A stretch of DNA of 64,000 bases from assembly GCA_048772705.1 (NCBI GenBank), contig JBLWGC010000208.1, positions 1 through 64,000 on the forward strand, read 5' to 3'. The notes below the pieces were generated by a model, which did no database searches, was not told the DNA's origin, and saw nothing but the letters and a program-made list of their open reading frames with translations. Both the position numbers and the translations under genes were made by a program. Of the stretch, positions 1-56,400 are shown piece after piece. Positions within the stretch are counted from its first letter, which is position 1. Each line of letters starts with the position of its first letter. Source of the DNA: Leidyana gryllorum EB-2025a. Lineage: Eukaryota; Protista; Apicomplexa.

Positions 1-554
1 CATAAGGTAAGAGACTCACCTATTACATGTCTTGTTCTCGTACGTGATCACTTCGTGTATCTTATGCTACAACGCTGCCGTCTTACCATCTTTTGTTTTA
101 GATGATGTTGCCCATCTCAACTTGGAACCCTTTCCCGCAAATCTGACACTTCATGTATCCCCGATGTACATGAGGAGGGGTAGGGGGAGCTAGGGGAGGG
201 GTAGGGGCTGCCAGCCTTGGCAATGGCTTCAGGTCCACCGTCGAGGCCAGTGAGTCTCTGCGAGTGCTCAATAACTCTGTTTGCTCATCTTGAACAACCG
301 TTGAGAGACACCCAATGACCTCAGTAGACGAGACCGAAGCTGAGGGAGACTGAGAATCACTCAGTGGCATGCTAACTGGGGGGCCACTGGATGCTGGTTG
401 GGGGAGGGAGCGAATGGGGGAGGGGTTAGCTGGCTGGGGAAAAAACCGAACAACCGGGGGTTCAGGCTCCATTGGCTGGAGCTCTACTCGCAATTGGGGT
501 CGCGGGGCATCCCAGTTCCTCGCAAAGTGCCGAAGCTCTTCCTCGGCTATGTGA

Positions 555-1142
555 GATGTGTGGGGATGAGGTGTGGGAACTTACTTGGTGTGGGAACGTG
601 CCAGACCAGTCTGAGTGGCACGAGGTCACGTCTTGGGAACATCTGGGGGGGAAGAAAGCGAGCGCGAGCGAGAAGAGGGCTTTTTGGATCTGAGAACAAA
701 AACAACAGTCCAAGTCCCACGTCTCGCACACCAAATCTTGGGAAAAGTGGCTCGTTTGGGCTGCTCTCTGTTGCTTGCGAGCCGCACGAGAGCTAAATGA
801 AGGAGTCTGACGACCCTTACATCTCGATGGGAGGCTAGTTTGCTGTAGCGAACGAGCCAATTGAAGTTTGGGAAGTCTCATTTTTGCAAAAATCAGGCCT
901 TCTCGTGTCTCAGAGAGCTCGAGAGAGTCGCCTATCTCCTATTCTAGCGGTGAGATTTCGCCTAAAATCTGGCTGCTAACTAATCAGGCCACTACTATTC
1001 CTAAGGTAAGCGAGAGAGCTAGTCTAGAGCTTCTAATCAAATTCCTATTTCACTAAAAGTCGTTTCTGGTACCCCCTAAGAACCCCCAAAAAACCTACGG
1101 TAATGGTCGGGCACACCCTTGCGGGTTTCGCCGACCTGCACA
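555..1142 (+). mobile_element. 5'-truncated LTR copy (copy 1), ending at the conserved ACCTGCACA site
   Basis: Near-identical to ~7759-8347 of the complete LTR; ends GCCGACCTGCACA. Confidence 0.9.
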
Positions 1143-1345
1143 ACCACCTCACAGCCACGGAGATGGCTTACAACGCATCGGTACAGAAATCAACGAACGC
1201 TACACCACTGGAATTAGATACAGGCAGAGTCACTTTCATACCTACCAACCTCACTGACATTGCAGGAACCAGGAGCACCTTTGGCAGAGTATACCTCCAA
1301 AAGTTACAGGAAGCACACGACCGATTGAACGAGGCAATTCGACTA
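1143..1345 (+). pseudogene. Ty3/gypsy integrase core fragment
   Basis: HLTATEMAYNASVQKSTNATPLELDTG resembles the gypsy integrase 'AE.AYN.S...ST..TPFEL..G' segment; followed by LQEAHDRLNEAIRL. Confidence 0.75.
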
Positions 1346-2454
1346 GTTTGCCTGTAACCTTTGGTTCGGCGTTTCGGTCGGCTTCGATGGCTGTTGTGAC
1401 TGCTGTTTGTTTTTGGATTATGTGGTTTATGTGCTTGTTTATCGCTGCATTGTACTGTGTTTGCGTGTTCGCGAATGTTTAGCTTTCAATTCTCTACACG
1501 TTCCGGTTGCTGTAGCGTGCGCAAGTAAGGTCTGATGTGGTGTGTATTGTGCTAATAAAAGACTGTGACGATATAGTTGTGTTGCTTAGTATGTTGACAG
1601 GTATCGTGCTTGTTATGTATTGATTTGTGAGACTATATGAGCTGGAGATGCATGATTGTATGAGTGTATGGCGTGTATTTTGGTAACTGTGCTGTGATGT
1701 GTAGTATGCTCAGTTTGCTAAAGTGAATGTGGAGCAACTTGGAAGGTTATGTGTGAGTGATATTGGTTTAGATGGTTTGTCTGTTAGGCTGTGAGGGGTC
1801 TAGAGTGAGTCAGCGATTCGCTCGTTGATTGAGGAGTATTTGTAGACGTATAAAAGCTTGTAATGCTAGATATAGGGGGATCAATGAGATTCAGTTGAAT
1901 TGAGAGTGTTGAGAAGAATGTCATGAGTCCAATGCGTATCGTGGACATTATTTATCGGAGTGAATGGGAATTTGTAAGAATATGCGGATGGAGTCAAGTT
2001 ATGCATAGGATTTGAGTGTTGATTCGGACGACATGAATTTGGCTAATGATAGGTAGGTTAATAGGAGTATATTGACAATTGTGATGTAGTTCAAGGTGTG
2101 GTAAGAGGGTGGTGGTCAGTTGTTTGCTATAAAACATTGAGAGAGTGTATATATGCTAAGAGTTATGAGTATTCGAATTGTTAGTGTACGAGCGGGATGA
2201 TAAGGCTGATATGTAAGTTGAGTAATAGTGTGCGTGAAGAAGTATTGATGGGGTGTGGGGAGCGCCCTTGTCGCTTCGCTCGGGCGCTTCCCCGTACCCA
2301 TTGTTTCTGTGAGATTTATTTATTGATGGAATAGTTAGCAAGCTATCGTGAATGTGATAAGTAGAACGAACCAATTGCATCAATCTTGCGTGCAATTGCT
2401 CTGGAACGATATGTACGAGTTCAAACGACTTGTAGAGAAGTGTCATTTAAGTAC

Positions 2455-3855
2455 CTATCAAGTAGCAAATAAGTGTGAAACAAGTGTCAAACAACTCGGA
2501 AACCAGTGTCAAGCAAGGCTGGAACATGTTGCAAACAAGTGTCAAACATGTCGCGAAGCAAGGGTCAAAGCAGTTCGCAACAAGTCTCAAACATGTTGGA
2601 AACAACTCGCAAACAAGTGTCAAAAGAGTAGCAAACATGTGGCAAACAAGTGTTCAACAACTCGCAAACAAGTGTCAAACATGTATCAAACAAGTGTCAA
2701 GCATGTGGCAAACATGTGTCAAACAAGTGAGAAGCATGTGTGTAACACGTGGCAAACAATTAGCAAACAAGTGTCAAAGATGTCGCAAACAAGTAACTAA
2801 CAAGTGTGAAACAAGTGGCAAACATGTGTCAAAGATGTCGCAAACATATCGCAAACATATCCTAAACGAGTGTCAAACAGGTGTGAAACATGTGGCAACA
2901 AACAAGTGGCAAACATGTGTGTCACACGTGGCAAAAAAGTAGCAAAACAAGTGTCAAAGATGTCGCAAACAAGTGTCAAACGAGTGTCAAACAAGTGTGA
3001 AACATGTGGCAAACATGTAGGAAACAAGTGGCAAACGTGTGTGTAACACGTGGCAAACAAGTAGCAAAACAAGTGTCAAAGATGTCGCAAACATGTCGCA
3101 AAGATGTCGCAAACATGTCGCAAACAAGTGTCAAACGAGTGTCAAACAAGTGTGGAACATGTGGCAAAAAAGTGTTAAACATGTGGCAAACAAGTCTCAA
3201 CGGAGTTTCAAACAAGTGTTAAACATGTGGCAAAGAACTGGCAAGCAAGTGTAAAGCATGTGGCAAACAAGTTTCAAAGAAGTATCAAACAAGTAGCAAA
3301 CAAGTGTCAAACGAGTGTCGAACAAGTGTGGAACATGTGGCAAAAAAGTGTTAAACATGTGGCGAACAAGTCTCAACGGAGTTTCAAACAAGTGTTAAAC
3401 ATGTGGCAAAGAACTGGCAAGCAAGTGTAAAGCATGTGGCAAACAAGTTTCAAACGAGTGTCAAACAAGTGTGGAACATGTGGGAAAAAAGTGTTAAACA
3501 TGTGGTGAACAAGTCTCAACGGAGTTTCAAACAAGTGTTAAACATGTGGCAAAGAAGTGGCAAACACGTGTCAAACGAGAGTCAAACAAGTGTGAAATAT
3601 GTGGCAGAAAAGTGTTTAACATGTGGCGAACAAGTCTCAACTGAGTGTCAAAGAAGTATGAAAGATGTGGCAAAGAAGTGGCAAGCAAGTGTAAAGCATG
3701 TAGCAAACAAGTGTCAAACGAGTGTCAAACAAGTAGCAAGCAAGTAGCAAACAAGTAGGAAACAGGTAGCAAACAAGTGTCAAACATGTCGCAAACAAGT
3801 CTCGAACATGTTGCAAAGGGGTATTGAAGGTGCTACAAAGAGATGTGTAACACAA
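2455..3855. repeat. Degenerate ~11-bp satellite (AAACAAGTGTC / AAACATGTGGC family) with higher-order repeat structure
   Basis: Tandem imperfect units seen directly; generates spurious KHVANKCQTS-type ORFs. Confidence 0.9.
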
Positions 3856-3912
3856 GTATCATCTGGTACAAGTTGCACACTGGTGACGAACTCTGCTTTT
3901 TTGAAAAATTTG

Positions 3913-4086
3913 GTAAGGGGTTAAGGATGACGACATGAAAAATTCCGATGAATTAGTAACGGGTTAAGGATGACGACATGAAAAATTCCGATGAATTTGT
4001 AACGAGATAAGGATGACGACATCAAAAAACACCGATAAACTTGTAACGAGATAAGGGTGACGACATCAAAAAATGTGATAAATTTC
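3913..4086. repeat. 43-44-bp minisatellite, 4 copies (GTAACG(G/A)G(T/A)TAAGGATGACGACAT(G/C)AAAAA...)
   Basis: Direct inspection; repeated at 5426-5599. Confidence 0.9.
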
Positions 4087-4270
4087 GCTTAGAGACACCC
4101 AATAACCTCAGTAGACGAGAAATGCGGTAGGGGAGACTGAGAATGACTCAATGAGATGTTAGCTGGGGCGTCACTGGATGCTGGTTGGGGCAGGTAGCGA
4201 ATGGGGGTCAGTTGGCTGGGATAAAAACTGCACAATGGGGAGGTGAGGCTCTGGTCGCAAAGTGGCGAAG

Positions 4271-4877
4271 CTCCTTGGGGGCGTTCTGGGATGTGTGGGG
4301 ATGAGGTGTGGGAACTTACTTGGTGTGGGAACGTGCCAGACCAGTCTGAGTGGCACGAGGTCACGTCTTGGGAACATCTGGGGGGGAAGAAAGCGAGCGC
4401 GAGCGAGAAGAGGGCTTTTTGGATCTGAGAACAAAAATAACAGTCCAAGTCCCACGTCTCGCACACCAAATCTTGGGAAAAGTGGCTCGTTTGGGCTGCT
4501 ATCTGTTGCTTGCGAGCCGCACGAGAGCTAAATTAAGGAGTCTGACGACCCTTACATCTCGATGGGAGGCTAGTTTGCTGTAGCGAACGAGCCAATTGAA
4601 GTTTGGGAAGTCTCATTTTTGCAAAAATCAGGCCTTCTCGTGTCTCAGAGAGCTCGAGAGAGTCGCCTATCTCCTATTCTAGCGGTGAGATTTCGCCTAA
4701 AATCTGGCTGCTAACTAATCAGGCCACTACTATTCCTAAGGTAAGCGAGAGAGCTAGTCTAGAGCTCCTAATCAAATTCCTATTTCACTAAAAGTCGTTT
4801 CTGGTACCCCCTAAGAACCCCCAAAAAACCTACGGTAATGGTCGGGCTCACCCTTGCGGGTTTCGCCGACCTGCACA
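4271..4877 (+). mobile_element. 5'-truncated LTR copy (A)
   Basis: Matches LTR from CTCCTTGGGGG to GACCTGCACA. Confidence 0.9.
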
Positions 4878-5425
4878 AACAAGTCTCAACGGAGTTTCAA
4901 ACAAGTGTTAAACATGTGGCAAAGAACTGGCAAGCAAGTGTAAAGCATGTGGCAAACAAGTTTCAAACGAGTGTCAAACAAGTGTGGAACATGTGGGAAA
5001 AAAGTGTTAAACATGTGGTGAACAAGTCTCAACGGAGTTTCAAACAAGTGTTAAACATGTGGCAAAGAAGTGGCAAACACGTGTCAAACGAGAGTCAAAC
5101 AAGTGTGAAATATGTGGCAGAAAAGTGTTTAACATGTGGCGAACAAGTCTCAACTGAGTGTCAAAGAAGTATGAAAGATGTGGCAAAGAAGTGGCAAGCA
5201 AGTGTAAAGCATGTAGCAAACAAGTGTCAAACGAGTGTCAAACAAGTAGCAAGCAAGTAGCAAACAAGTAGGAAACAGGTAGCAAACAAGTGTCAAACAT
5301 GTCGCAAACAAGTCTCGAACATGTTGCAAAGGGGTACTGAAGGTGCTACAAAGAGATGTGTAACACAAGTATCATCTGGTACAAGTTGCACACTGGTGAC
5401 GAACTCTGCTTTTTTGAAAAATTTG

Positions 5426-5599
5426 GTAAGGGGTTAAGGATGACGACATGAAAAATTCCGATGAATTAGTAACGGGTTAAGGATGACAACATGAAAAATT
5501 CCGATGAATTTGTAACGAGATAAGGATGACGACATCAAAAAACACCGATAAACTTGTAACGAGATAAGGGTGACGACATCAAAAAATGTGATAAATTTC
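5426..5599. repeat. Second block of the 43-bp minisatellite
   Basis: Copy of 3913-4086 within the 1513-bp duplication. Confidence 0.9.
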
Positions 5600-5783
5600 G
5601 CTTAGAGACACCCAATAACCTCAGTAGACGAGAAATGCGGTAGGGGAGACTGAGAATGACTCAATGAGATGTTAGCTGGGGCGTCACTGGATGCTGGTTG
5701 GGGCAGGTAGCGAATGGGGGTCAGTTGGCTGGGATAAAAACTGCACAATGGGGAGGTGAGGCTCTGGTCGCAAAGTGGCGAAG

Positions 5784-6390
5784 CTCCTTGGGGGCGTTCT
5801 GGGATGTGTGGGGATGAGGTGTGGGAACTTACTTGGTGTGGGAACGTGCCAGACCAGTCTGAGTGGCACGAGGTCACGTCTTGGGAACATCTGGGGGGGA
5901 AGAAAGCGAGCGCGAGCGAGAAGAGGGCTTTTTGGATCTGAGAACAAAAATAACAGTCCAAGTCCCACGTCTCGCACACCAAATCTTGGGAAAAGTGGCT
6001 CGTTTGGGCTGCTATCTGTTGCTTGCGAGCCGCACGAGAGCTAAATTAAGGAGTCTGACGACCCTTACATCTCGATGGGAGGCTAGTTTGCTGTAGCGAA
6101 CGAGCCAATTGAAGTTTGGGAAGTCTCATTTTTGCAAAAATCAGGCCTTCTCGTGTCTCAGAGAGCTCGAGAGAGTCGCTTATCTCCTATTCTAGCGGTG
6201 AGATTTCGCCTAAAATCTGGCTGCTAACTAATCAGGCCACTACTATTCCTAAGGTAAGCGAGAGAGCTAGTCTAGAGCTCCTAATCAAATTCCTATTTCA
6301 CTAAAAGTCGTTTCTGGTACCCCCTAAGAACCCCCAAAAAATCTACGGTAATGGTCGGGCTCACCCTTGCGGGTTTCGCCGACCTGCACA
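5784..6390 (+). mobile_element. 5'-truncated LTR copy (B)
   Basis: Matches copy A at offset 1513. Confidence 0.9.
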
Positions 6391-7068
6391 AATGGGGGTC
6401 AGTTGGCTGGGATAAAAACTGCACAATGGGGAGGTGAGGCTCTGGTCGCAAAGTGGCGAAGCTCCTTGGGGGCGTTCTGGGATGTGTGGGGATGAGGTGT
6501 GGGAACTTACTTGGTGTGGGAACGTGCCAGACCAGTCTGAGTGGCACGAGGTCACGTCTTGGGACCATCTGGGGGGGAAGAAAGCGAGCGCGAGCGAGAA
6601 GAGGGCTTTTTGGATCTGAGAACAAAAATAACAGTCCAAGTCCCACGTCTCGCACACCAAATCTTGGGAAAAGTGGCTCGTTTGGGCTGCTATCTGTTGC
6701 TTGCGAGCCGCACGAGGGCTAAATTAAGGAGTCTGACGACCCTTACATCTCGATGGGAGGCTAGTTTGCTGTAGCGAACGAGCCAATTGAAGTTTGGGAA
6801 GTCTCATTTTTGCAAAAATCAGGCCTTCTCGTGTCTCAGAGAGCTCGAGAGAGTCGCCTATCTCCTATTCTAGCGGCGAGATTGCGCCTAAAATCTGGCT
6901 GCCAACTAATCAGGCCACTACTATTCCTAAGGTAAGCGAGAGAGCTAGTCTAGAGCTTCTAATCAAATTCCTATTTCACTAAAAGTCGTTTCTGGTACCC
7001 CCTAAGAACCCCCAAAAAACCTACGGTAATGGTCGGGCACACCCTTGCGGGTTTCGCCGACCTGCACA
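6391..7068 (+). mobile_element. 5'-truncated unit (C): short flank + LTR copy
   Basis: Matches 4200-4877 with several SNPs; ends GACCTGCACA. Confidence 0.9.
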
Positions 7069-7582
7069 ACAGCAAGAAGAACAAGCGAACAAGAAGAGGA
7101 AACCAATAACGTTTCAGCCAGGAGAGCAAGTGCTCCTGAGCACGAAACAGTTGAGCCACGTACCCACCAATAAACTCGCCCTACCTTTCTGCGGGCCATT
7201 TACAATACTGGAAAGCTGTGGATGCGACACATACAAGCTAGATCTGCCAGACTCATGGGGAATGTACCCAAAATTCCACTCGTCACGACTGGAAAAGTGG
7301 TACCCACGACAAGGCGAAACCAACTCAGCGCGAGACGAGACGGACACTACGCCAAACGAAGAAGAGACTCTCTACATCATGCAGGACATTGTGGGATGGA
7401 AACAGGAGGGCAACCAATTGTACTACAGAGTCCGATGGGTGGGATATCAAGACGAGAGTTGGGAGACAGCTGAAACAGTACTGGATGCAGACGGTGCGGA
7501 CTTGATAACCGAATTCAAACACAAGTGGAACAACAAATATCCACGGAACCCGTTCAGTCTAGGGGAAGAGGGAGGGGTGTAA
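7069..7582 (+). pseudogene. 3' end of chromovirus pol: integrase C-terminus (GPF motif) + chromodomain
   Basis: ANKKRKPITFQPGEQVLL...KLALPFCGPFTILE...TYKLDLP...FHSSRL (GPY/F domain) then YYRVRWVGYQDESWETAE (chromodomain). Confidence 0.9.
7561..7577 (+). other. Polypurine tract (PPT)
   Basis: AGGGGAAGAGGGAGGGG immediately before the TG of the LTR. Confidence 0.9.
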
Positions 7583-8397
7583 GCGTGTCTCCGGGGAGAC
7601 CGGCACGGACCGGCATGGAGACACAGACACGAGTTTTTAGACACACGCACGAACTTAGACTAGAACAAAAAACAGATGGACTTACGAAGCGGCCGAGCAG
7701 TGCAACCGACCCTAGCAGGTAGCGCCGAGCAAGGCTACACTCCTTGGGGGCGTTCTGGGATGTGTGGGGATGAGGTGTGGGAACTTACTTGGTGTGGGAA
7801 CGTGCCAGACCAGTCTGAGTGGCACGAGGTCACGTCTTGGGAACATCTGGGGGGGAAGAAAGCGAGCGCGAGCGAGAAGAGGGCTTTTTGGATCTGAGAA
7901 CAAAAATAACAGTCCAAGTCCCACGTCTCGCACACCAAATCTTGGGAAAAGTGGCTCGTTTGGGCTGCTATCTGTTGCTTGCGAGCCGCACGAGAGCTAA
8001 ATTAAGGAGTCTGACGACCCTTACATCTCGATGGGAGGCTAGTTTGCTGTAGCGAACGAGCCAATTGAAGTTTGGGAAGTCTCATTTTTGCAAAAAACAG
8101 GCCTTCTCGTGTCTCAGAGAGCTCGAGAGAGTCGCCTATCTCCTATTCTAGCGGTGAGATTTCGCCTAAAATCTGGCTGCCAACTAATCAGGCCACTACT
8201 ATTCCTAAGGTAAGCGAGAGAGCTAGTCTAGAGCTCCTAATCAAATTCCTATTTCACTAAAAGTCGTTTCTGGTACCCCCTAAGAACCCCCAAAAAAACC
8301 TACGGTAATGGTCGGGCTCACCCTTGCGGGTTTCGCCGACCTGCACAACGAAGCATTCACCTGAGCACTACGAACCCGGCCTTAGAGCCAGGTTACA
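7578..8397 (+). mobile_element. Complete 3' LTR (820 bp) of a Ty3/gypsy chromovirus
   Basis: Starts TGTAA after the PPT and ends TTACA (5-bp terminal inverted repeat); the only copy that continues past ACCTGCACA. Confidence 0.82.
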
Positions 8398-8788
8398 CTG
8401 CTATCTGTTGCTTGCGAGCCGCACGAGAGCTAAATTAAGGAGTCTGACGACCCTTGCATCTCGATGGGAGGCTAGTTTGCTGTAGCGAACGAGCCAATTG
8501 AAGATTGGGAAGTCTCATTTTTGCAAAAATCAGGCCTTCTCGTGTCTCAGAGAGCTCGAGAGAGTCGCCTATCTCCTATTCTAGCGGTGAGATTTCGCCT
8601 AAAATCTGGCTGCTAACTAATCAGGCCACTACTATTCCTAAGGTAAGCGAGAGAGCTAGTCCAGAGCTTCTAATCAAATTCCTATTTCACTAAAAGTCGT
8701 TTCTGGTACCCCCTAAGAACCCCCAAAAAACCTACGGTAATGGTCGGGCACACCCTTGCGGGTTTCGCCGACCTGCACAACCTGCACA
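8398..8788 (+). mobile_element. 5'-truncated LTR copy (E, 8398-8779) plus 9-nt reiteration ACCTGCACA (8780-8788)
   Basis: Direct alignment to the LTR. Confidence 0.9.
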
Positions 8789-9130
8789 ACGACCCTTACA
8801 TCTCGATGGGAGGCTAGTTTGCTGTAGCGAACGAGCCAATTGAAGTTTGGGAAGTCTCATTTTTGCAAAAATCAGGCCTTCTCGTGTCTCAGAGAGCTCG
8901 AGAGAGTCGCCTATCTCCTATTCTAGCGGTGAGATTTCGCCTAAAATCTGGCTGCCAACTAATCAGGCCACTACTATTCCTAAGGTAAGCGAGAGAGCTA
9001 GTCTAGAGCTCCTAATCAAATTCCTATTTCACTAAAAGTCGTTTCTGGTACCCCCTAAGAACCCCCAAAAAACCTACGGTAATGGTCGGGCTCACCCTTG
9101 CGGGTTTCGCCGACCTGCACAACCTGCACA
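8789..9130 (+). mobile_element. 5'-truncated LTR copy (F, 8789-9121) plus 9-nt reiteration (9122-9130); innermost unit
   Basis: Direct alignment; unique sequence begins ~9132. Confidence 0.9.
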
Positions 9131-9295
9131 AACCATCTGGAGCGTATCAACAACTCTAGACATTGTATAGACCGCGAAAATCGCCACGATCAACCCTCCA
9201 TTTGATAGTCAATAGACCCCCTTCCGGAGCTATTGTCGGGATGACGGTTAGGATGGTTGCAAAAGAACTCTGATAAGTAAGATTTCAAATCTGAC

Positions 9296-12223
9296 ATGCT
9301 GCAGCCCCATTCTTATATCACTCTCAAGGACCACATCATAGCCTGCCTTTGGATATCAGCCAGTCCGGAAGCAGCCGAGCTTCGCAGGAATGGCTTCTCC
9401 ACTTCGGTCACTCAAGAGAATGAACTGAAGAGGATAATGGTTCGTGGTCCTACTACTACATTGGAGTGAGTATTATTCTCCAGCCGGGTAACAAGCGCAG
9501 CTTCCAGAAGAAGTTTTCTTTGAGTGCCATCGTGGCACAAATCTCATTGCCAGGTCCAACGAAAGTAGTGAAACGTACAGCCAATCAACAATGGTGTTGT
9601 TCAGCATTCTCGAACAGTTCTTCGGTTCCGGAAGCTCTCGCTCCGCTCCGGGAGAAATTCCGATCTGCTCAACGAGACCCCATCCTCTCAGCTCTGCTGG
9701 ACATACCAGTCCTCTCCTGGACGCATGATGTCTTTGGCGATGGTTTGCTCATCAACTTATTTGCACGATGTGATATACACTTCCAGACGTCACTTCTGAG
9801 AAGCTCGAATGTGTGGTTCTCCTTGAGGTCACAACAATCCTTGATCGTGAGCGAAGGTCAGCCATCGACCTTGAAGCCCGTTGCGACTGATCACCCGATA
9901 CCCCCAAATACTTTGACGATGGCCAGCGGGCGCCGTGGACGACGAGGTCGCCGAAAGCGCATCTATAAGGAGCTTTCGTTGAGTCCGGAAGCTGAGCTGC
10001 GCCGCTATCTGGTATGGCCAGCCTCTCTGCCCGAAAGTGAAGTCCTCCTCGATGTGAGGTGGTGTATCCGGGAGCGCCAGTCTTTTCCAGCTTCTTGGGG
10101 TTGGCCCGCTAGGCACTACCTCAGCCTGCTTCTGCGGAGGCCGGTGCTACGCGTTTGTGTCGCTAATGGCTCCATGCTCGTACCGAGCGATGTATTCGCC
10201 GCACGATGGGTATTATGGGCGAATAACAGCGAGTTTCGGGTCGAGGGCCCTGACTCGCTGACAACTTTGGGAAACAGTAATTGGGGGACTAAGTACCTCA
10301 GCCTCAAACACTTCGCTGAACTGCGACATCAAATATCTTGCCGTTGCGCGTGGGACTTCCTGACATTCGTTCAAGAGATATTGAGGGATATACTGAGATC
10401 GTTGAGGAATTTGAAACAAAGAGAACTCCTGCAACGGTGGGCTCCGTGTAGACGCCGATCACTGGAGTTGGCGCCGCATTGCTATCGTGTACCCCGGTGG
10501 AACATTACCAGGCTCTTCAGAGCGTTGATTGGGTGAGTGAGTCTGGAATGCACGGTGCCCCTAGGCTCGTGGTAGCCTTGTCGTCCCTCTCCCCAGGCCC
10601 TATGTGCAAAAGCTGCAGCAGCTGGCCACAAAATTGTTGACTGGACGGATCTGCGGGCAAGTCACTGTGCATGACTGCTTGCACAACGTGGGACTGGCAG
10701 CCATCCGTCAGAAATTGGTGAGAGATTCCTCACTCATAGGTGTGGGAAATATGCTGGCCAAATTCTTTTGGGTACGGATTTGCAAGTTTGTACTGCAGAG
10801 CATTGTCTTCGTCTTGATACGGTACGTGGTGGCCACAAGTAGACTCTTTAATGTGGACAGAAAGTGGTTCCATGTGAGTGTTTTGGCAAATCGTTTCTGC
10901 TTCTTCCGTCGAGTGACGTGGTCGTACCTGACACATGAACATCTGCCCTTGATGCCTTTCACGAAGCTGCTACTGAAGGGAAGCGGATTACGCCCAATCG
11001 TAAACTATCGGCGGGTAAACAGATGCTTCCTGATCGGTCATGCCTCTTAGCCTTTGTCAGACTTCCCCATTGTGGCTGGTTGTTTCAGTGAAAGATTGCA
11101 ACGTGCTGGAATTGTGACAACTTCCTCACCGGTACGCGATTTGTATCGCATTGTAGCCTCTTTACTTCGTGCTCACCTCCCGAGACCCACCGATGCGGTG
11201 CGGGATATCGGCCAAGTTCACAGAAAGCTGCTGCAATTCGTCCGGCAATACAACAAGTATTGTTGTCGGACTGGATGTATGACGAAGCAGCTTCTCTGTG
11301 TGGCAAAATTTGACCTCAGGTCGTGTTTCAACGCGATCGATACAACCGATTTGGAGGGTCGGCTTCTGAAGGACTTGGCGTCTCACCAGTACTTTGCGCT
11401 GTACCCCTTGAAGATTGTTTTGGACCGTTTCAGAACATCTTGCACGTTGTGGGTGCCGAACGCTGATGCCGTGGAGATCAGACAGCGGGTTCGTAGAATC
11501 CAACGTAAGCTGGGGTGGCGTCTGAAGTCTGATGACACCATTTTGGTGGAGAAAGACTCCAAGAAGCCAGTGTTGGTACTACCCAAAGGGGAACTGTTTG
11601 AAATCCTATCCAAAGCATTCCAGATGGCTGGAAAGGAAGGCGGGTTGCCGCAAGGCTTACCCATCTCGTCGCTGTTGTGCGACTACTACCACGCGCGTGG
11701 CGACTGTCGAGTGAGAGCAATTACGGACAAGGCAGCACCTTCGCTGGTCATGCGTTGGACGGATGACGTACTAGTTCTGTGCCCTTCATTAAATTCGACG
11801 CAACTGGTAGTCTCAAGAGCAATGGAGATGTATCAGTCCCACTTGGCAGAAGAGAAGACGGCTATAGAACGGTACCCGCTGCAGGATGAGTGTCTCCTAT
11901 GGAAGCGACCCATTAGCTGGGCTGGTATGACGCTGTGCCCCCGGCTGGTGGGTAATACATTGCGTCTCGAACTTTCTGCGCAGAGAAACCATCTTCTTAC
12001 CTCCGGGGCATCGTTCAGTACTACAGCAGTCCGATTTCAAAAGCAGAAGTTACGGGCTAGACTGGTGGCATGTCACGCTTGGCGAAGCCGCCGCCTTTTT
12101 CTGGACGTGGAACTGAATAGTCTGCGCCACATACGCCTCAACTACAAACTGGCGAGGATGCCACTGCGGTTAATAGGAGCGTGTAAGCCAATCCTGCTCA
12201 GGAAACGACCAACCAAGAACTAG
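9296..12223 (+). CDS. TERT: Telomerase reverse transcriptase, divergent (~920 aa; predicted introns 9466-9500, 10533-10575, 10822-10860, 11015-11050)
   Basis: TEN/GQ-like (FGDGLLINLFARCDIHF...GQP), T-motif-like (LIRKWFHVS...CFFRRVTW after splicing), motifs 1/2 (LLKGSGLRPIVNY), A (KFDLRSCFNAID), B' (GLPQGLPISSLLCDYY), C (MRWTDDVLVL), D (EEKT), E (ISWAGMTL); the predicted introns keep frame. Confidence 0.9.
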
Positions 12224-12224
12224 T

Positions 12225-12784
12225 TCATGCACTGGGAACCTCTATCTCGCCAGCATCGATGGCTTTCTGGATCTCAGTGGGCTTCTTGCCGTTGACAGTA
12301 CAGCCGACGGCATTAGCAGTGCCCAACATCTCCTTCACTGTTCCCGCCAAGGTGCGAGAAATGATGCCTCTGTTAGCTGACCGCATTTCCCGAGCGATAT
12401 CGACGATAGTGTCGAAGCTGAGGTTGCCCGAATGCTTGATGTTTTTGACCTTCTTCCTGTCACGGGGGGGCTCCTTCAGGGCGCGAATAATGAGGGAAGT
12501 GGCCGTGGGGATGATTTCACAACTGATTTGACGGTTCTGGATCTTCAGCTGCACTGTGACCTTCACTCCTTTCCACGCTTGAGTGGTTTTGGCAATCTCA
12601 TCACCAGCCTTCTTGGGAGCCTGCACAACATTTAAGGATTATGGATCCAATGTGGACCGTCGTATGCACTTACGATACCAAGCGGACCCAACTTGGGTGC
12701 CAGAACGGCGGAGGAACCTGCCTCACCACCGACCTGACGGACGGTGACGTAGGAGATGGCGTTAGGGTCGAACTTGGGCGGCAT
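12225..12784 (-). CDS. RPL12: 60S ribosomal protein L12 (uL11); intron 12621-12673
   Basis: MPPKFDPN...GGE...LAPKLGPLG|[11 protein letters not shown]...[18 protein letters not shown]. Confidence 0.97.
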
Positions 12785-12870
12785 GATACTTCCTCTCCGT
12801 GTGCTGGCAAAGTTGCGCTCCTTGTATTTTTGTCTTTTTTGTAAGGCTGTTAGGTCTCTTCGCAGGCTCC

Positions 12871-15853
12871 ATGCTATCACGACTGTTCAACAAGGGCGAC
12901 GATGGAGGAAGCAAGGCTACCGTAGCGAAAGTGAGTGAAAGGGCATCTTCCCAATGACTATTTCGTGCCCAGATGGGGACACCCAACCGAATGTATTTCA
13001 ACAAGGAGTTGAAGAGGTGGGTTATACCTGGAACCGAGGAAGCTGCTCGGAAAGAAGCAGCCGAGGCTGACAGGCCTCCCCCTACGGACTCTGATCTGCC
13101 ACCACCGCCACCAGTGGGTGCCCCAGCGCCAAGCACAGGGGATCTGGCAAGTCGATATCCTGTGCCCTGTTACTCTTCATATATAAAATCGACTGGAGAT
13201 CACACGCGTTCCCTGTCATCCAATACAAGACCCGTTACCCCTTGTCCCGATCCTAAAGACCATCCTGGCGGTGGAGAGATTGGCGAGAGTCATACCCATA
13301 CAAAAAGAGATGTACAACAAGGCGTAGTTCCTCCATTGCAGCCTATCCCGCACCCAAAATGTGGGGAGGCCACAATTGATTCCAGTCGTACCAAGAGGAA
13401 CTACGGTACCGATCACGTCACTGTTGGAGATGACGTTGTCAATAATACAGCACGATTCCCCGCACATCCTCCACGACCCAGCAGTCGCCGAGGATCAATG
13501 GGTTCTGATATCGGAGGCCTTCCTCCAGTTGGCGATAACAGACGGATGGGAATGACTCGACCCCCTCTGCCTACGCGCAGGGGAGGGGGCCAGGGCGAGG
13601 GTATGCCGCCACTGCCTCCAGCACAACAACATATTCTGTCAAGCGGCGATGTGGCTTCGTATGTTGGAGGAGATGAAGTTCACCGTCGAGCCTCCACGGC
13701 CCAACGCAGGCAAAGCTCTTTCGATAGCCGAAATTTGAACACCATGCCGCCTCCAAGTGACACCGCGAGCGTCCGGATGTCAACGCGTAGAACCACCAGT
13801 GTTCAGCGTGAGCAGATGACTCTTCTCACACCAGACACTGACTATCCCACATTTGTAGGGCATGTTGGGGGATTGGATACAAGAGTTAATTCTGTTCATC
13901 TGGGATCTCCCCCGATGTCTCCTCAAGGGCGAGGTGCTGCAGCGGAGTACGGTATCGGTGGCTGGTTCGCGTACCGTAATCGTGTTGAGCATGTCAGGCA
14001 GACGTCGGGTCGTTGGACTCCAGACAGCACGACGAAGTTTCAGGCAACTGTAGATCAAGCTCCGACACCCAAAACCTCTGCAGCTTTCCGCATCACCGAC
14101 GGTTTGGAGCGGGAGCTTGCACACGTCTCGACTTTGGCAGACTATGAGTTGGTCGGCACATTGGAAAGCATGGCAGCAATCATCAGATGTGGAACGCGAG
14201 AAGCAGCAATGTTTCCGGCCTCCGTGGCCAGCAACCTGATAGCGTTGTTGAAAGAAGTCAAAGACAAGTATCCCAACAATATCAACCTAGTTGGCGCCGC
14301 GGACACGTTGCTGCACGTGCTCGAGGCTGGGGCTGACATTCCCCAAACATTGACGTTGAACGAGGAACTGATGTCCGCTCAGGTGGCTGCAGTACATCTG
14401 CAACCTCTAACAGAGCTTCGCGAATGCCTTGCCAGGTGCGTGCTTTCCTCACCTTCCTCCAGTAAAGACTTTGTCACCTTGTGCAGGTTGCAAATGGCTT
14501 GGGAAACTCTGGGGCATGCGGATCATGTGGCCAGTCTTGCGCCTGCGTTTGCCCTCGTTGAGAACAGTATCCGACAAAGCACAGAACGTGCCAATACAGC
14601 GTGAGTTGCTTCAGACAGTACGGCTGGGTATTTTCCATTCTGACAGGTTCAAGGATGTTGAACAATTACGATTAGACCTACGGCGGTGCCTCGACTGTTT
14701 CAAAGAAGCGTTGGAAGAATCGCAACGTGTGAATACCACGCTGGAGTCAAAATTAGCAGCGAATCAACTGGACGATCGGGTGGAGGGCGAGTTGGAGGCA
14801 GTCAAGCAACGCAACGAGGCGCTAATGGAAGAGAAGGCTTCACTCGAGCAGAAGTTGGCTGATCTGCGTTCTGAGAGTGAAGGCATCACGAACAGAGTTG
14901 AGAGTGTTTGGAAGCAGCGTATGCACGCTCAAGAGACAGAATTTAGATCCAGATGGGCTCGTCGACTGGACCTCGAACGGAACGAGATGGCTCGTCGGAA
15001 GAAAGTAGACGAGGAGCATCAGAAAGTCGTTGCTTCGCTGGAGGAACGCAATAGCGCTTTGACGAAGGAGTTGGAGGACTTGCGTTGCAGAGAAGTGCAG
15101 GTCCACGGTCATCGTCAACGAGAATACGACGAACAGTTGGTGGAAGCGAGGAGTCACATTCAGGATTTAGAGGAGCAAGTGAGCATTTTGGAGAACACAG
15201 TTGCGGATTTGCGAACCGATCTGGAGTGCGAACGCAGCACCGGCACTCAATTACAGCAAGAGCTGACGCAGACCAAGTCTTCGCTGGACGATGTCCAGAA
15301 GCGTTTGCAGCAGCAACTTGAGGAGGCCGCTGAGCATGCCAGGATATTGGCGGAGGCATCCGAATTGGCGGAGAATAGGCTGATGGAAGCAGAGAAACGA
15401 GCGGACAACCTCGAGGAGAAGGCCCTCGTTGCTCAGGAGGCGCTCTCACAGATGCAGAAGCAAACACAACAACTGCGAGAACAGACGGACGCGGAAGTTG
15501 CACGAACTCGAGAAGCTTTGAATACCGCGGAACATACCCTACGGTGCATGGAGCAGGAACTCAATCACGTACGTACTGAGTTCCAAGCCCGATCGAATCA
15601 GATGGCGGAGGCTACTTTGGGTGACAAGGAACAAGTCCGAAGCGTTTTGCAGGCACTTCGTGGTCGTGCGGATCTCATCGAGCAGACCGCTACTCAATTG
15701 TCCACTGGGATGGAGCGACTACATGGATTGGCATCCAGTCCGTGGCAGCTGTGCGAAGAAATGGAATGTGAGGATATACTCGGCCAAGCTATCCAAACTC
15801 TGTCCCAGTCACCTCTCCCGAGTGCTAATTCGCTGACTGCTGCAGCTTACTGA
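12871..15853 (+). CDS. Pro-rich / long coiled-coil protein with an N-terminal Sec16-like '[10 protein letters not shown]' motif; introns ~12931-12972, 14601-14647
   Basis: Two long ORFs joined by a GT-AG intron; E/Q/L heptad-rich C-terminal half. Confidence 0.7.
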
Positions 15854-19586: not shown

Positions 19587-21897
19587 ATGCCTATCTTCGG
19601 AATTGATCTCGGTTCAGCCTCTTCCGTTATCGCCACTGTTGGCAAACGAGAGGTAACTATTGTGCGCAATGATTTGGCAGACCGCCTGACCCCGTAAGTT
19701 GTTGTTGTTAGAGTTGGCCCCTCTCTTCACAAGTCAATGCCTTCAGAACTTTGGTGTCATACACGGACAAGGAGCGGCTCATCGGCGATGCCGCCTTAAC
19801 TTCGATGAAGAGCAATATGACAAGAACGACAAGATACTTCAAAAACTTGTTGGGAGCGATAAATGACAAGTCATGCGACCCTGTGAGAGCCATCGAAGAG
19901 GGGTTCATGCTGGCCCCAATAGTCCCAACTGATGCCTCGGGCTTACTCGGCTATGATGTTGGTCGGTCGAACCCAGTTACCGCTACCGAAATCCTAGCCT
20001 GCTACCTCAAGAGATTGCGAAGCATTGGAGAAGCTTTCATCGGAACTAACTGTGGAGACGTTGTTGTGGCTGTGCCTTCGTGGTTCACAGATGTGAATCG
20101 TATGGCAGTTTTGGACGCGTGCGACATAGCGGGTCTCAAGTGCTATCGCGTCATGTCGCACACGGCAGCAACAGCTCTCAACTACGGACTGTTCCGATCG
20201 GCGACATTTCAGGCTGATAAGACTCAAGTTGTAGCTTTCGTTGACATTGGCGCCGCCGCCGCTTCTGTGACCATCGCAGAGTTCCAATCGGATAGACTGA
20301 GAATCGCCGCTGTTGAAGAGCGTACTGATCTGGGAGGCCGGTCTTTGGACCGCTTACTCATCATGCACCTGGCAGAGTTGTTCAAGTCAAAGACCAAAAG
20401 AGACGTCTTTGCCAACGCTCGTGCAGCCCTGAAGGTTGCCGAAGCTGCCGAGAAGGCCAAGAAAGTTCTGTCCGCCAACAAGGAGGCCAGTGTTCACATT
20501 GAATGTTTGATGGGCGACGAAGATCTGGAAGCTTTGATCACCCGCGAGACCTTCGAGGAACTCGCAGGTCCCTACAACAAATTGCTGAACGAATTGGTCT
20601 CCTCAGCCATCGCCAAGGCCAACTGCACCGCTGAAGACATCAAGTCTGTCGAGATCGTGGGAGGTGGCACGCGTGTCCCGTTCGTGCAAGCCACCATTGA
20701 GAGACTTTTTGGCCGTCCAGTCTCACGTACCGTCTCGGCTGATGAGTGTGTGGCTCGTGGAGCCGCAATCCAAGGAGCCATGTTGCATCCGTTCCATCGT
20801 GTCAAAGACTTCCAAGTTATCGATGTCCGCACCACCCCAGTGTACGTTACTTTGTCAGCAGAGACTGCGGGCAGTGCTTACGAGATGATCAAAGACGAAG
20901 CCAAGCCTATGACTTTCGCCAAGGACACTACCTTCGAGTTGTTTCCTATCGGCACACCCAGTTACTACCTCAAGTGGTTGCTGTTCCCGCCAAGTGTTGC
21001 CAGCTGCTCTCGTGTCACCTTTGATCTCTCCACAATGAACCATCATGGCAGCCTCATCCCACTGGGAACTGCCGAGGTGATTGTGCCTGACGCCATTCGC
21101 CAGCGAGCGGCTGCTGCCGAGGCAGGCAAAGCGCGTCTCAAAGTCTGCTTCAAATCGGATATCCACGGCATTGTCCAGGTGTGTGCCATCTTCGCTGAGG
21201 ATTACATGGAGAAAGAGACGATCGTGGTGTCAAAGGACGTCCCCAATGAGGCAGGTGAAATGGTCCGGACGCAGGTTGAAGAACAAGAGGATCGCTTGAA
21301 GACCAGGAAAACCGATTTGGAGGTGCGGATAGAGAGACCTTTGGGATGGCTGGGACCGAAGGAGCTGAACAACATGAAAGAGCGGGAAAGACAATTCGCC
21401 GCCGAGGACGATGCCGCCCAAAAAGCTCGCCACATTGCCAATGAAATCCTGTCCTGCTGCTTCTCAATCAGACAGGAGCTCACCGGGGCTTTGAGTGCTT
21501 TCGCTACATCGGAGGAAAAGAGTACTTTGGAACAGAAGAGCCGCGAATGGGAGATGTTCGTCGAAGAGAACCAGGGACTCGCCTACGAAGACTATCTGCC
21601 CACATGGGAAGACCTTAAGGTAGGTACCAACTAGTCTTTCCATCATAACTTGGCCGTGCACAGAAACACTACGACCCAATCCTCGGTCGCAAACAAGCGC
21701 ATGACGAGGAGCTGCGTCGCCAGGAAGAGGAGGCACGTCGTCTAGAGGAGGAAGAAACGCGTAAAGCAGAGGAAGCAGCACGAGCAGCCCAAGCAGCTGA
21801 GCAGGAAATGTCTCCCGAAAGTAGCAACAACAGCTCTCCAAACGTTGTGGTTGACGATACTATGGAAGAGGGTTCGCCTAACAGCCAGAATCAGTGA
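19587..21897 (+). CDS. Hsp110/Sse1-type Hsp70-family chaperone
   Basis: MPIFGIDLG...VRNDLADRLTP, TAATALNYG, VEIVGGGTRVPFVQ, SADECVARGAAIQGAML. Confidence 0.92.
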
Positions 21898-53426: not shown

Positions 53427-56400
53427 CTAAACAGCAGGTCTGCCTAAGTCACCAGCCTCCTGAATACGTCCCAGATGCTCAAAGTCGCCAATCAGAGCAT
53501 TCGCAAAGCCTTCTGTAACCGATGCGACCAAATTAAGACACGCCATTAACGGAGACAGCAGACAACGACAAAATCGCCATATCCCCCAGAGTAATATCTT
53601 CCAGCCATTCTCACCCCTGATTTTGCAATGAAAATGTACTGAAGCCTCTTTTGTTGTCAGCGCCTCACCTTTTTATCTGATGCCACGTCTGCACAACGAA
53701 TGACTTCCAAGGCCTCCAGAACAAATCCAGCCAAAAGCCTCGGAACCCAACACTGAATCCATCCACAATTCCGGAAGGTCGTGGTCGATATCCGCCGAGC
53801 GCTTTGTGCAGCAAGTTGCACATATGACTCACGAAGAAGAAGGTGCCGCCAAACACATGAATCAGCAGCACCACTGCGCCCAGACGTATGGCGGCGATGT
53901 CGGGAGAGAGCAATCCCATACGTCTGCTTTGCGAGACTTCAACTGTCACCAACTGTATCAGCGACATGCCACCCCGATATACGCCCATGATGGGAGCCAA
54001 TATATAGTTGAAGAATCCCACACTCAAAGAGATAGGAATATAGGACATGAGATAAGCGTGTTTCAGGCTGGCCACCAGCTCTGCCCATGTTGAGACGAAG
54101 AACGTCCGACGGACCTCTCTCACTTGAACAGCCTATCACACAGAATAGCGTTGCACCGAACAAAGAGAGCGGTTCCTTACCATATAGGGGGAGTCGAGTG
54201 GGAGGGCGTCCACAATCCACAATATATCTCGGTTGATCTTTTGACCAGATGTTCTAATTGAGCAGGCGATTTCGATTGGGGAAATGTTGAACTTCTGGAA
54301 GTAGACGGCATGAGTGTCCTTAAGTTCACTCCATCGAGGGCTGACAGATGCGAGAATGGGAGAGAAAGATCCAGCAGGGGATATATAGATGGACTTTCTC
54401 AACCTTTTGAAATTCAGCTCTGTTAGTTTCCGTAATTCTTTCACTGTGTGTAATACCGGAGGCTTCACCACACTCTTCAGTGTCTTCGAAGCCACCTCGT
54501 AATCGTGTGACTCGTCTTCCACCACTTGGGCACTGTCTTGCCGAAGATAGCGACCGACTTCCTCGCCAATGAGATATCGGGTGGTCGAGCTTCCCATGGA
54601 CGGAGACGCAACAAGTGACTTCTCCCGCTCAAACAGCGCTACAATCTGCTCGAGTACGGCCATTTCTAGATTGATCAGAAGCGGACTGATGTGGACCTGA
54701 GATCGCGCATGACGGGATTAGAAAAACCCTCTCAACAACGACTCACCGAGATTTGATCATACACAGAGGCATGAGTGGGATCCAACAAGTGCTTATTGAG
54801 AGCAACAAAGACTGCTGAATTGTTGGGGGCCCTCATCCGCGGCGACATGCTCGCGCTCAGAAATGCTTCAACTTCTGCAACAGCCTCGTCGTCTGGACTC
54901 AATGGCCCTTCCTTGGTCGGCTTCTCTCGCAGTATTCCACCTCCTACCGGCGCGCTCTTCACCAAGACGGGCACGTCCCCCTCCACAAAGTGGTCGCAGT
55001 GAATGACACCCAACGATATGTCTATTTTCAACACTCCGTTCAACAATAGCGCCTGCATCATCTCTTGGATTCGGTGGGATTGTTGTTCCCGCAACTCCGC
55101 CAGTCTAACGGGATCCGAGGTCGCATACTTTGGAATTTGAGCCATCTTGATCATCTGTCCCTCGGGAGCTTCGTCTGTCAACTGCAGACTTCGCCTCCGC
55201 CGGCCCGTAAATCTAACCCGCACAGCGCTCAATGGCTTCCGTTTGCGGGTCACTGAAAACTGCCGACTATCCTCGTCCTCAGCCTGCATCACAGGATGGC
55301 CACTCAGCCAAGCGGGTGTCTGACGAGGGCGTAGGCTACCCGACACAAAGAAATCGGTGAGGTGCATCGCTACGACATACGATCCTCTGTGACTCCACGT
55401 GATTCGTATCCGATCCAATACGGCTTCCCATCGCAGTCTCACGAACGGCAACTGCACTCCGCCTCGAGCCTTCATCACCTCATCACTTGACCCCTGAACT
55501 TGACCACGACGGATGTTCTCCACCACTGCTCTGCTGTCCACCAAGTGGAGGATTCGGGTACCTTCTTTATTGACAGTTAATAAGCCATATACGGCAGTCT
55601 TCCCCTCCAGAATCTCAATCTCTTCTGCACGCGGACGCCGGGGACTCAGACGCGACAAAGCTGACACTTTTTGCCCATGAGAATACTCTCTGGTCAAAGT
55701 GCCCATAGGAGACGCCGTTGCTCGTAGAGCGTTAACGTCTAAACGCTGAGGCGCTTGAATGGGCTCGTACTCCATCACCACAACATCATTTTTGACCGAC
55801 ACCAACGAATGGACGTGCCACTTGGAATTCTTGGCATGTGGGAGCATAACGCTGGCAGTGACCCGATCCTCTTCTCCTGGTGTAGCGAAATGCACCAAGC
55901 CTGAGCCCGGTGCAACTTGAATGGGAGGTCCATCATCTCCGCGTTTGAGCCACGTCAACAGGTTGGCTTCATTAGTGCTCTCGCCAATGGGGTACAGTAG
56001 ATTCTCGCCCGGCCGCCATCGCCGCGTTCTTTTCTCTCGTTGCACTCTCAACGTGTTCTTCATATCCTTAACGTGGCGTGATTCCCGATTGTCGTATCCG
56101 TCGGCTGATGCCTTGCAGAGGATAGTTTGACTGGTCATATTCCGAATAAGAAAGTGGGGTGACGTTGGCAAACTCAAAATGAACCAGAGGCCAGCCATCG
56201 AATAGGATCCGGATGACTTGACCCCTCGGAACTGTGAGCTCACCACATTCACCTGCAATATAACGCCCTGGTCGTTCCCATATCCCCGGTAACTGAGAAC
56301 ATCACAAAAGCGGATGAGATGGGACCAGATACCACCAAAGCCACTTACTCTTTGAGTTGCAGCTGCATCACAGTCGGGACAGTGGTAGTTTGCAGTGGGA

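Follow-up and report, generated by a model that had tools for sequence, protein, structure and literature searches.

A hairpin-bounded module that recurs in a repeat array of the gregarine Leidyana gryllorum is a real feature and behaves like a fixed internal template with occasional addition of a 9-nt repeat. Sequence comparison indicates that its owner is likely a separate non-coding element, named B here, which lies outside the adjacent chromovirus LTR. The explanation favored, at about even confidence, is that the module serves a non-autonomous element of the Penelope-like (PLE) type as an internal site of priming, the 9-mers arising by stalling within the hairpin and restart. The copying enzyme is probably that of a Penelope-type transposon; alternatively, it could be the adjacent telomerase.

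The window, that is, the whole stretch of 64,000 nucleotides analyzed (contig JBLWGC010000208.1), consists of a repeat array (1–9131) and a region that is gene-dense from about 9300 rightward. The host is a gregarine, the RPL12 gene (12225–12786, minus strand) being nearest to gregarine proteins (identities of 83% to Blabericola, 85% to Gregarina, and 70% to G. niphandrodes). The TERT gene and RPL12 are convergent at 12223–12225, with stop codons one base apart. Farther right occur an Hsp70-family gene (19712–21634) and, toward the right end, long minus-strand ORFs with a weak VPS13 domain match (56345–58594). The features of the array and its flank are collected in Table 1.

Table 1. Coordinates of the element B copies, the module, the chromovirus pieces and the TERT gene in the window.
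Feature	Position	Strand	Remarks
Copy U1 (variant B')	1..1143	+	Extends past window edge; 5' part diverged (304-551)
Antisense ORF in U1	98-580	minus	Pro/Ser-rich; no Pfam or Atlas match
Chromovirus (family A) integrase, left piece	1145..1352	+	Past catalytic core
TGTAACCT	1353..1360	minus	Reverse complement, without mismatch, of the tail's final 8 nt
Copy U2	1361..4877	+	Longest; GT-rich part, satellite, 43-bp repeats, shared core
Copy U3	4878..6390	+	5'-truncated
Copy U4	6391..7068	+	5'-truncated
Family A integrase, right piece	7069..7577	+	SH3-like and chromodomain; includes polypurine tract 7560-7577
Likely true chromovirus LTR	7578..7739	+	TGTA...TACA; 162 bp; end coincides with start of B homology
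Copy U5	7740..8397	+	Sole copy with tail
Hairpin 1	8310..8341	+	6 bp, 4x4 internal loop, 4 bp, TTGC loop
11-mer ACCTGCACAAC	8339..8349	+	First 3 nt in stem
Predicted small stem-loop UGC/GCA	8342..8355	+	3 bp; AC-rich loop contains site 1 in the model
Optional tail	8349..8397	+	49 bp; 1/7 copies; contains hairpin 2; terminus AGGTTACA is putative site 2
Copy U6	8398..8788	+	5'-truncated
Extra 9-nt unit ACCTGCACA	8780..8788	+	Right end of U6
Copy U7	8789..9130	+	5'-truncated; adjoins unique host DNA
Extra 9-nt unit ACCTGCACA	9122..9130	+	Right end of U7, followed by unique host DNA
TERT gene	9296..12223	+	937-aa open model; introns 9466-9500, 10533-10575, 11015-11050 predicted GT-AG

Element B is represented by seven copies, all in one orientation and with variable left ends. 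U3 differs from the 3' part of U2 at 4 positions in 1514 bp. Among the copies, 17 of 589 columns are variable and the SNP patterns show all four gametes, which points to several source templates or to recombination. U2 contains an 11-bp satellite (2466–3808, about 121 copies) and 43-bp repeats (3907–4085), and an inverted repeat with 20-bp arms (2248–2301) occurs in its GT-rich part. G exceeds C along the whole sense strand of B (skew +0.08 to +0.45). A Pfam scan of 12 short frames of B returned nothing approaching a cut-off, and an Rfam search gave chance-level matches only. The antisense ORF of U1 terminates in CQICGKGF, which we take to resemble the start of a C2H2 finger, and may be a captured piece of a host gene.

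The hairpin GGTCGG-GC(A/T)C-ACCC-TTGC-GGGT-TTCG-CCGACC is found in all seven copies (starts 1105, 4840, 6353, 7031, 8310, 8742, and 9084), as the original prediction had it, and its polymorphism is indeed confined to the internal loop, where a single SNP divides the copies into three with A and four with T. This SNP is no evidence of conservation, since the copies share 97.9–99.5% identity and 12 of the 32 positions lie outside the stem pairs, and one loop SNP amounts to no covariation. The folding energy of hairpin 1 (-16.2 kcal/mol, z -2.2) is the strongest among the 627 32-mers of 7740–8397, and 0.1% of 3000 background 32-mers are as stable. The predicted second hairpin is also present, at 8373–8394 (-7.7 kcal/mol; 1.3% of 3000 background 22-mers as good). 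The exact pattern of hairpin 1 had 0 matches in metagenome contigs and 0 in viral contigs.

The relation between the hairpin and the 11-mer differs from the one first described. Instead of running straight into the 11-mer, the hairpin overlaps it, ACC at 8339–8341 being part of the helix (probability of being unpaired at most 0.01). The stem's last three bases thus double as the start of the 11-mer, and the 9-nt unit terminates inside the helix; copying up to the helix, which had been supposed to give 9 nt, would yield 6 nt. The terminal AC repeat of the 11-mer exists, but 2-nt repeats of this kind are common, as they occur at 43% of background positions at periods 5–12 and at 7.5% at period 9. 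Site 1, as we infer it, has 8347 as the first copied base, with the primer end opposite 8348.

The module had been placed inside an intact LTR at 7578–8397. It lies past 7739, and that interval appears to be composite. The integrase is of the Ty3/gypsy type, with a chromodomain and a polypurine tract directly before 7578. All four other copies that reach past the shared core (4/4) enter different sequence there, and the homology boundary at 7739 reads GGCTACA, a closing TACA being expected at that place by chance with a probability of about 0.02. The divergence of the other copies beyond the core, together with TACA at 7739, makes 7578–7739 the likely LTR and 7740–8397 element B. The family A integrase has 0 relatives in viral contigs.

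The same chromovirus records an insertion of B. The integrase pieces that flank 1353–7068 abut in frame, with an offset of 70 codons vs. 72, 70, and 69 in three homologs, a comparison that relies on proteins of 30–34% identity. The agreement of frame and offset indicates that U2–U4 (1353–7068) interrupt the integrase and that hardly any of it, if any, was lost, and three copies so placed with almost no loss are not simple end additions. The presence of TGTAACCT at the left end of the insert has a chance of about 2e-4 within 6 nt; terminal inverted similarity beyond 8 bp is not significant (151/1000 shuffles).

The right ends provide the main evidence for a fixed template. Six of the seven copies terminate at one base, ACCTGCACA^A (the caret marks the junction), and the seventh 49 bp further, at site 2; for six of seven ends to fall within one 2-nt interval, p is about 4e-13 under uniform placement in the 609-nt core. 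A occupies the 8348-equivalent position in 6/6 junctions. The recipient could be resolved for three junctions, where the same sequence occurs uninterrupted elsewhere in the window, and in 3/3 of them the overlap begins at the 8348-equivalent (lengths 1, 1, and 4 nt) with no leftward match, so that the position is not governed by best pairing. The site therefore behaves as the fixed internal start of an RT template that had been proposed, with a constant register (6/6) and a constant overlap start (3/3). We infer that structure places the RT on the RNA and that about one base pair suffices for a DNA end to be accepted. At the recipient cuts 4878, 6391, 8789, and 8398 the preceding base is always G (three G^A, one G^C), and two of the cuts read GCG^AA; a cutting preference is possible, on weak statistics.

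An extra 9-nt unit is found in 2/6 site-1 junctions, in two copies that differ at 6 SNPs. These duplications (n = 2) are compatible with re-alignment on AC...AC, and the product after the extra unit would end in GT, pairing with 8348–8349 in the same register. No run of at least three 9-nt units occurs in the window, the maximum being two. Poly(A) is absent at 6/6 junctions (longest run 3 A). Splicing was considered as the origin of the junctions and rejected: on the minus strand TTGTGCAG^G resembles the RPL12 acceptor, yet the bases upstream of AG are retained in the copies.

Under the favored PLE explanation, a telomerase-like RT from a PLE elsewhere in the genome would copy B RNA onto cut DNA ends. 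The enzyme would bind the hairpin region, with the DNA 3' end set opposite A8348 and about one base pair needed. It would usually read through the hairpin for 0.3–3.5 kb and then drop off, and a next round restarting at site 1 would produce partial tandems. An occasional stall 3 nt into the stem, followed by restart on AC, would add the extra 9-mer, a step that would resemble telomerase translocation whichever enzyme performs it. Priming of both ends of a cut could account for the three copies in the integrase and leave the 8-nt inverted tail end.

The layout of element B as a whole, optional tail included, agrees with the internal-initiation signature of known PLEs. In the available part of a PLE survey (bioRxiv 10.1101/2021.04.23.441226), PLE insertions are described as 5'-truncated partial tandems, one end bearing a tail of 30–40 bp and the 5' end often an inverted copy; MRC1 and other non-autonomous PLEs were originally mistaken for LTR elements, and Naiad PLEs likewise have no hammerhead. 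For the anole PLE (PAc/Poseidon, Anolis), the accessible text of an in vitro study reports that reverse transcription begins inside the RNA at two places, one at each border of the tail, on an AC-rich stem-loop with no homology to the cut DNA, and that both strands are extended (PMC11167929). Element B shows 5'-truncated partial tandems (pLTRs) in U2-U3-U4 and U6-U7, an optional tail between two putative initiation sites (1/7 copies, 49 bp) and, where the insertion begins, 8 bp of inverted sequence that may be either such a copy or an LTR-type terminal repeat.

Against a PLE origin, the ends of B (TGTAACCT...AGGTTACA) also resemble ordinary LTR termini. No PLE enzyme was seen in the window, where the only RT motif picked out is that of TERT. 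Rfam and pattern searches of 1–9200 found no canonical hammerhead, the one CTGACGA per copy having no proper core. Five copies contain the region 7951–7989, where a 9-bp stem (GTGGCTCGT with GCGAGCCGC) is flanked by GAAA on one side and CTGACGA on the other; by eye these words are hammerhead-like, without a cleavage triplet. The literature covered, with subscription papers mostly outside it, contains no description of element B, no report of an apicomplexan PLE and no gregarine telomere repeat; the PLE survey text (10.1101/2021.04.23.441226) has 0 mentions of apicomplexans.

A possible but doubtful alternative is that the gregarine TERT templates on B RNA, with the 11-mer as template, TTGTGCAGG as repeat and a leaky boundary. 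Read-through, alone or extended by recombination with existing copies, would make the long units. In its fullest form, rated equally doubtful, TERT would make the 9-nt TTGTGCAGG about one time in four and otherwise read through, so that chromosome ends or breaks are built from copies of the telomerase RNA. The proximity of a 937-aa open TERT gene, 165 bp from the array and with telomerase-like RT matches and fold, speaks for this reading, as does the single register shared by de novo priming and repeat restart.

The TERT gene, whose ATG is at 9296, is apparently intact. It has RT motifs, the catalytic aspartates (Asp in motif A, DD in motif C) and a TERT-type fold. A full HMMER scan with the RT part gave 9 matches among 1.84 billion proteins, the best from Gregarina; 5/9 have the TERT C-terminal family and 4/9 clusters are source-named TERT. 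A word-indexed homolog search with the RT piece gave no match. In structure comparison the top 14 matches of the predicted model are all telomerases; the fold used is alignment-based (pLDDT 58), the single-sequence one (pLDDT 36) being unusable. Telomerase_RBD reached only E 0.58 and the pairwise TRBD match is not significant, this region being too diverged to score; no TEN domain was detected in the model, and an Atlas search with the TRBD piece returned nothing usable. A likely T motif (10565–11047) reads YVVATS vs. FFYVTE in TERT P0126, in a by-eye alignment that is not significant, and the C-terminus is about 40 aa short of the Gregarina homolog P0124, or the last intron was missed. A pseudogene was considered and discarded, as each of its three interruptions falls on an in-frame GT-AG intron; 408 splice combinations keep the frame open, so that the intron positions given are provisional. 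Insertions in the array, which ends so close to the TERT start (9131–9296), may disrupt or drive the TERT promoter.

This neighboring gene makes the telomerase-RNA idea possible, yet its presence does not link the enzyme to the RNA. The available part of a Plasmodium study reports that telomerase healing begins at one template position and gives a template, ACCCUGAACCC, of the same 11-nt length (PMC5550746), and no canonical telomere repeat beyond one unit occurs in the window (7 motifs tested), both of which suit a TERT that copies B. In rodents, according to the accessible text on TERC-ITS loci, internal breaks have received telomerase RNA sequence from outside the template, placed in opposite orientation (PMC2246262). 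However, the extra unit is present in only 2/6 junctions and three units in none, the sequence 3' of the template is just 48 nt long, the 9-mer requires 3 nt of stem to be opened, the 5' parts differ between copies and include a satellite, three copies are interstitial, and the G-rich sense strand means that the outward strand would be C-rich. We know of no kilobase read-through by TERT.

The idea that the module belongs to a telomerase RNA stands in part: the fixed start, the 9-nt repeats and the nearby TERT are there, whereas the window has no array of three or more units, and neither a pseudoknot above chance nor an Rfam match was obtained. Two of the family tests for a telomerase RNA, 5' boundary and 3' pseudoknot, gave negative results. 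The 5' helix does not act as a boundary that stops the RT, as had been supposed, since every one of the 7 copies continues through the hairpin into further sequence and the 9-mer ends 3 nt inside the stem; a simple search of 8350–8397 for an H-type pseudoknot found 4+4 bp at best (85/300 shuffles as good) and none at 5+5. A tandem 9-mer pattern was found at 51 loci in metagenome contigs (3–10 units), which have no bearing on this organism; compared with 1–13000 of the window they gave a single match of 23 nt, which falls on the repeat, and by their appearance many may be Pro-Ala-Gln codon repeats. The TeloBase supplementary file, in its accessible part, has no gregarine entry (PMC10767889).

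An unlikely reading makes B a 3.6-kb LTR-like unit (TGTAACCT...AGGTTACA) placed by the chromovirus integrase, with site 1 as the R/U5 boundary, that is, the RNA 3' end onto which a retrotransposon RT jumps. The 8-bp terminal inverted repeat with TG...CA would be expected of such a unit; 49 nt is a usual length for U5, and the tail fits it. Similar 5-mers (CTGCT, CTCCT, TTGCC) stand beside three TG/CA-type ends, and GCACA+AA at three junctions could come from a clipped A-tail. Poly(A) itself is nevertheless missing from 6/6 junctions, the 4-nt overlap at 8789 runs into the tail (ACGA), and no polypurine tract precedes 1353. A second event would be required to delete tail and target duplication exactly to the integrase, and the joining of U7 to unique host DNA is unexplained by copying within a particle.

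Quite improbable is a two-step route in which host telomerase, its RNA encoded elsewhere, seeds 1–2 TTGTGCAGG at a break, and B anneals through the reverse-complement repeat, to be copied in Athena/Coprina-like fashion by an endonuclease-less PLE RT or joined by recombination. Identical junction sequences would result, and a precedent exists in endonuclease-less PLEs, which attach to telomeric overhangs through reverse-complement repeats in the available part of the survey (10.1101/2021.04.23.441226). Telomerase would, however, have to halt after 1–2 repeats six times, no hammerhead stands beside the repeat, and the inverted tail end is left without explanation.

Copying at the DNA level, either from a site-specific nick by a hairpin-recognizing (HUH/rolling-circle) enzyme or by microhomology template switching, is very improbable. 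A hairpin close to a fixed end is a typical HUH substrate, as seen here, and G^A recipient cuts occur in 3/3 resolved junctions, but the local probabilities of G before A are 0.23, 0.53, and 0.45 (about 0.05 jointly), no such enzyme is found among the scanned ORFs, and neither the tail nor its inverted end is predicted. That the array is an assembly artefact is hardly credible, given the shared, structured SNPs across copies and the base-precise junctions into four kinds of sequence.

The site bears on the question of how short-template repeat copying arose from retrotransposon copying, as PLE RTs are the sister group of TERT in the available survey text (10.1101/2021.04.23.441226) and two kinds of product, the short restart repeats of 9 nt and read-through over kilobases, occur here at a single RNA site. 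Should a PLE enzyme be the copier, the array would document, in nature, a retroelement that adds repeats in the manner of telomerase. With TERT as the enzyme, it would represent a new mode of chromosome-end maintenance, and a leaky-template TERT, if true, a living intermediate between telomerase and Penelope-type retrotransposons. A candidate gregarine telomere repeat, TTGTGCAGG, is also provided.

Compared with known systems, B shares with Plasmodium telomerase RNA, as far as the accessible source describes it, an 11-nt stretch with a terminal repeat, an adjacent 5' helix, a fixed register and re-alignment. Unlike a telomerase RNA, it is multi-copy, has a variable 5' part, gives at most two units with read-through dominant, and includes interstitial copies. 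As in the part of the rodent TERC-ITS work available, non-template RNA is found in internal breaks, with the 3' part in opposite orientation and overlaps of 1–5 nt; in rodents repeats dominate and the RNA pieces measure 31–118 nt, and in B the reverse holds. Arrays of Drosophila HeT-A/TART are head-to-tail, with 5'-truncated copies whose 3' ends point toward host genes. The copies of B are arranged in the same way, like those of Athena/Coprina PLEs; unlike both, B has no ORF, hammerhead, poly(A) or repeat tracts.

The remaining comparisons concern PLEs, within the text of the sources available. The tail of B is 49 bp vs. 30–40 bp, its targets are not AT-rich, unlike those of the anole PLE, its 9-nt re-initiation repeats have no counterpart described there, and its host is a gregarine, unlike those of the described PLE systems. 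Like MRC1-type PLEs, B is non-coding and was first taken for an LTR. As in the anole PLE, the start falls in an AC-rich loop, predicted for site 1 of B, and pairs little with DNA, and, as in PLEs, two right ends bound an optional tail, the putative site 2 having been used once directly (8397) and apparently once in inverted form (1353).
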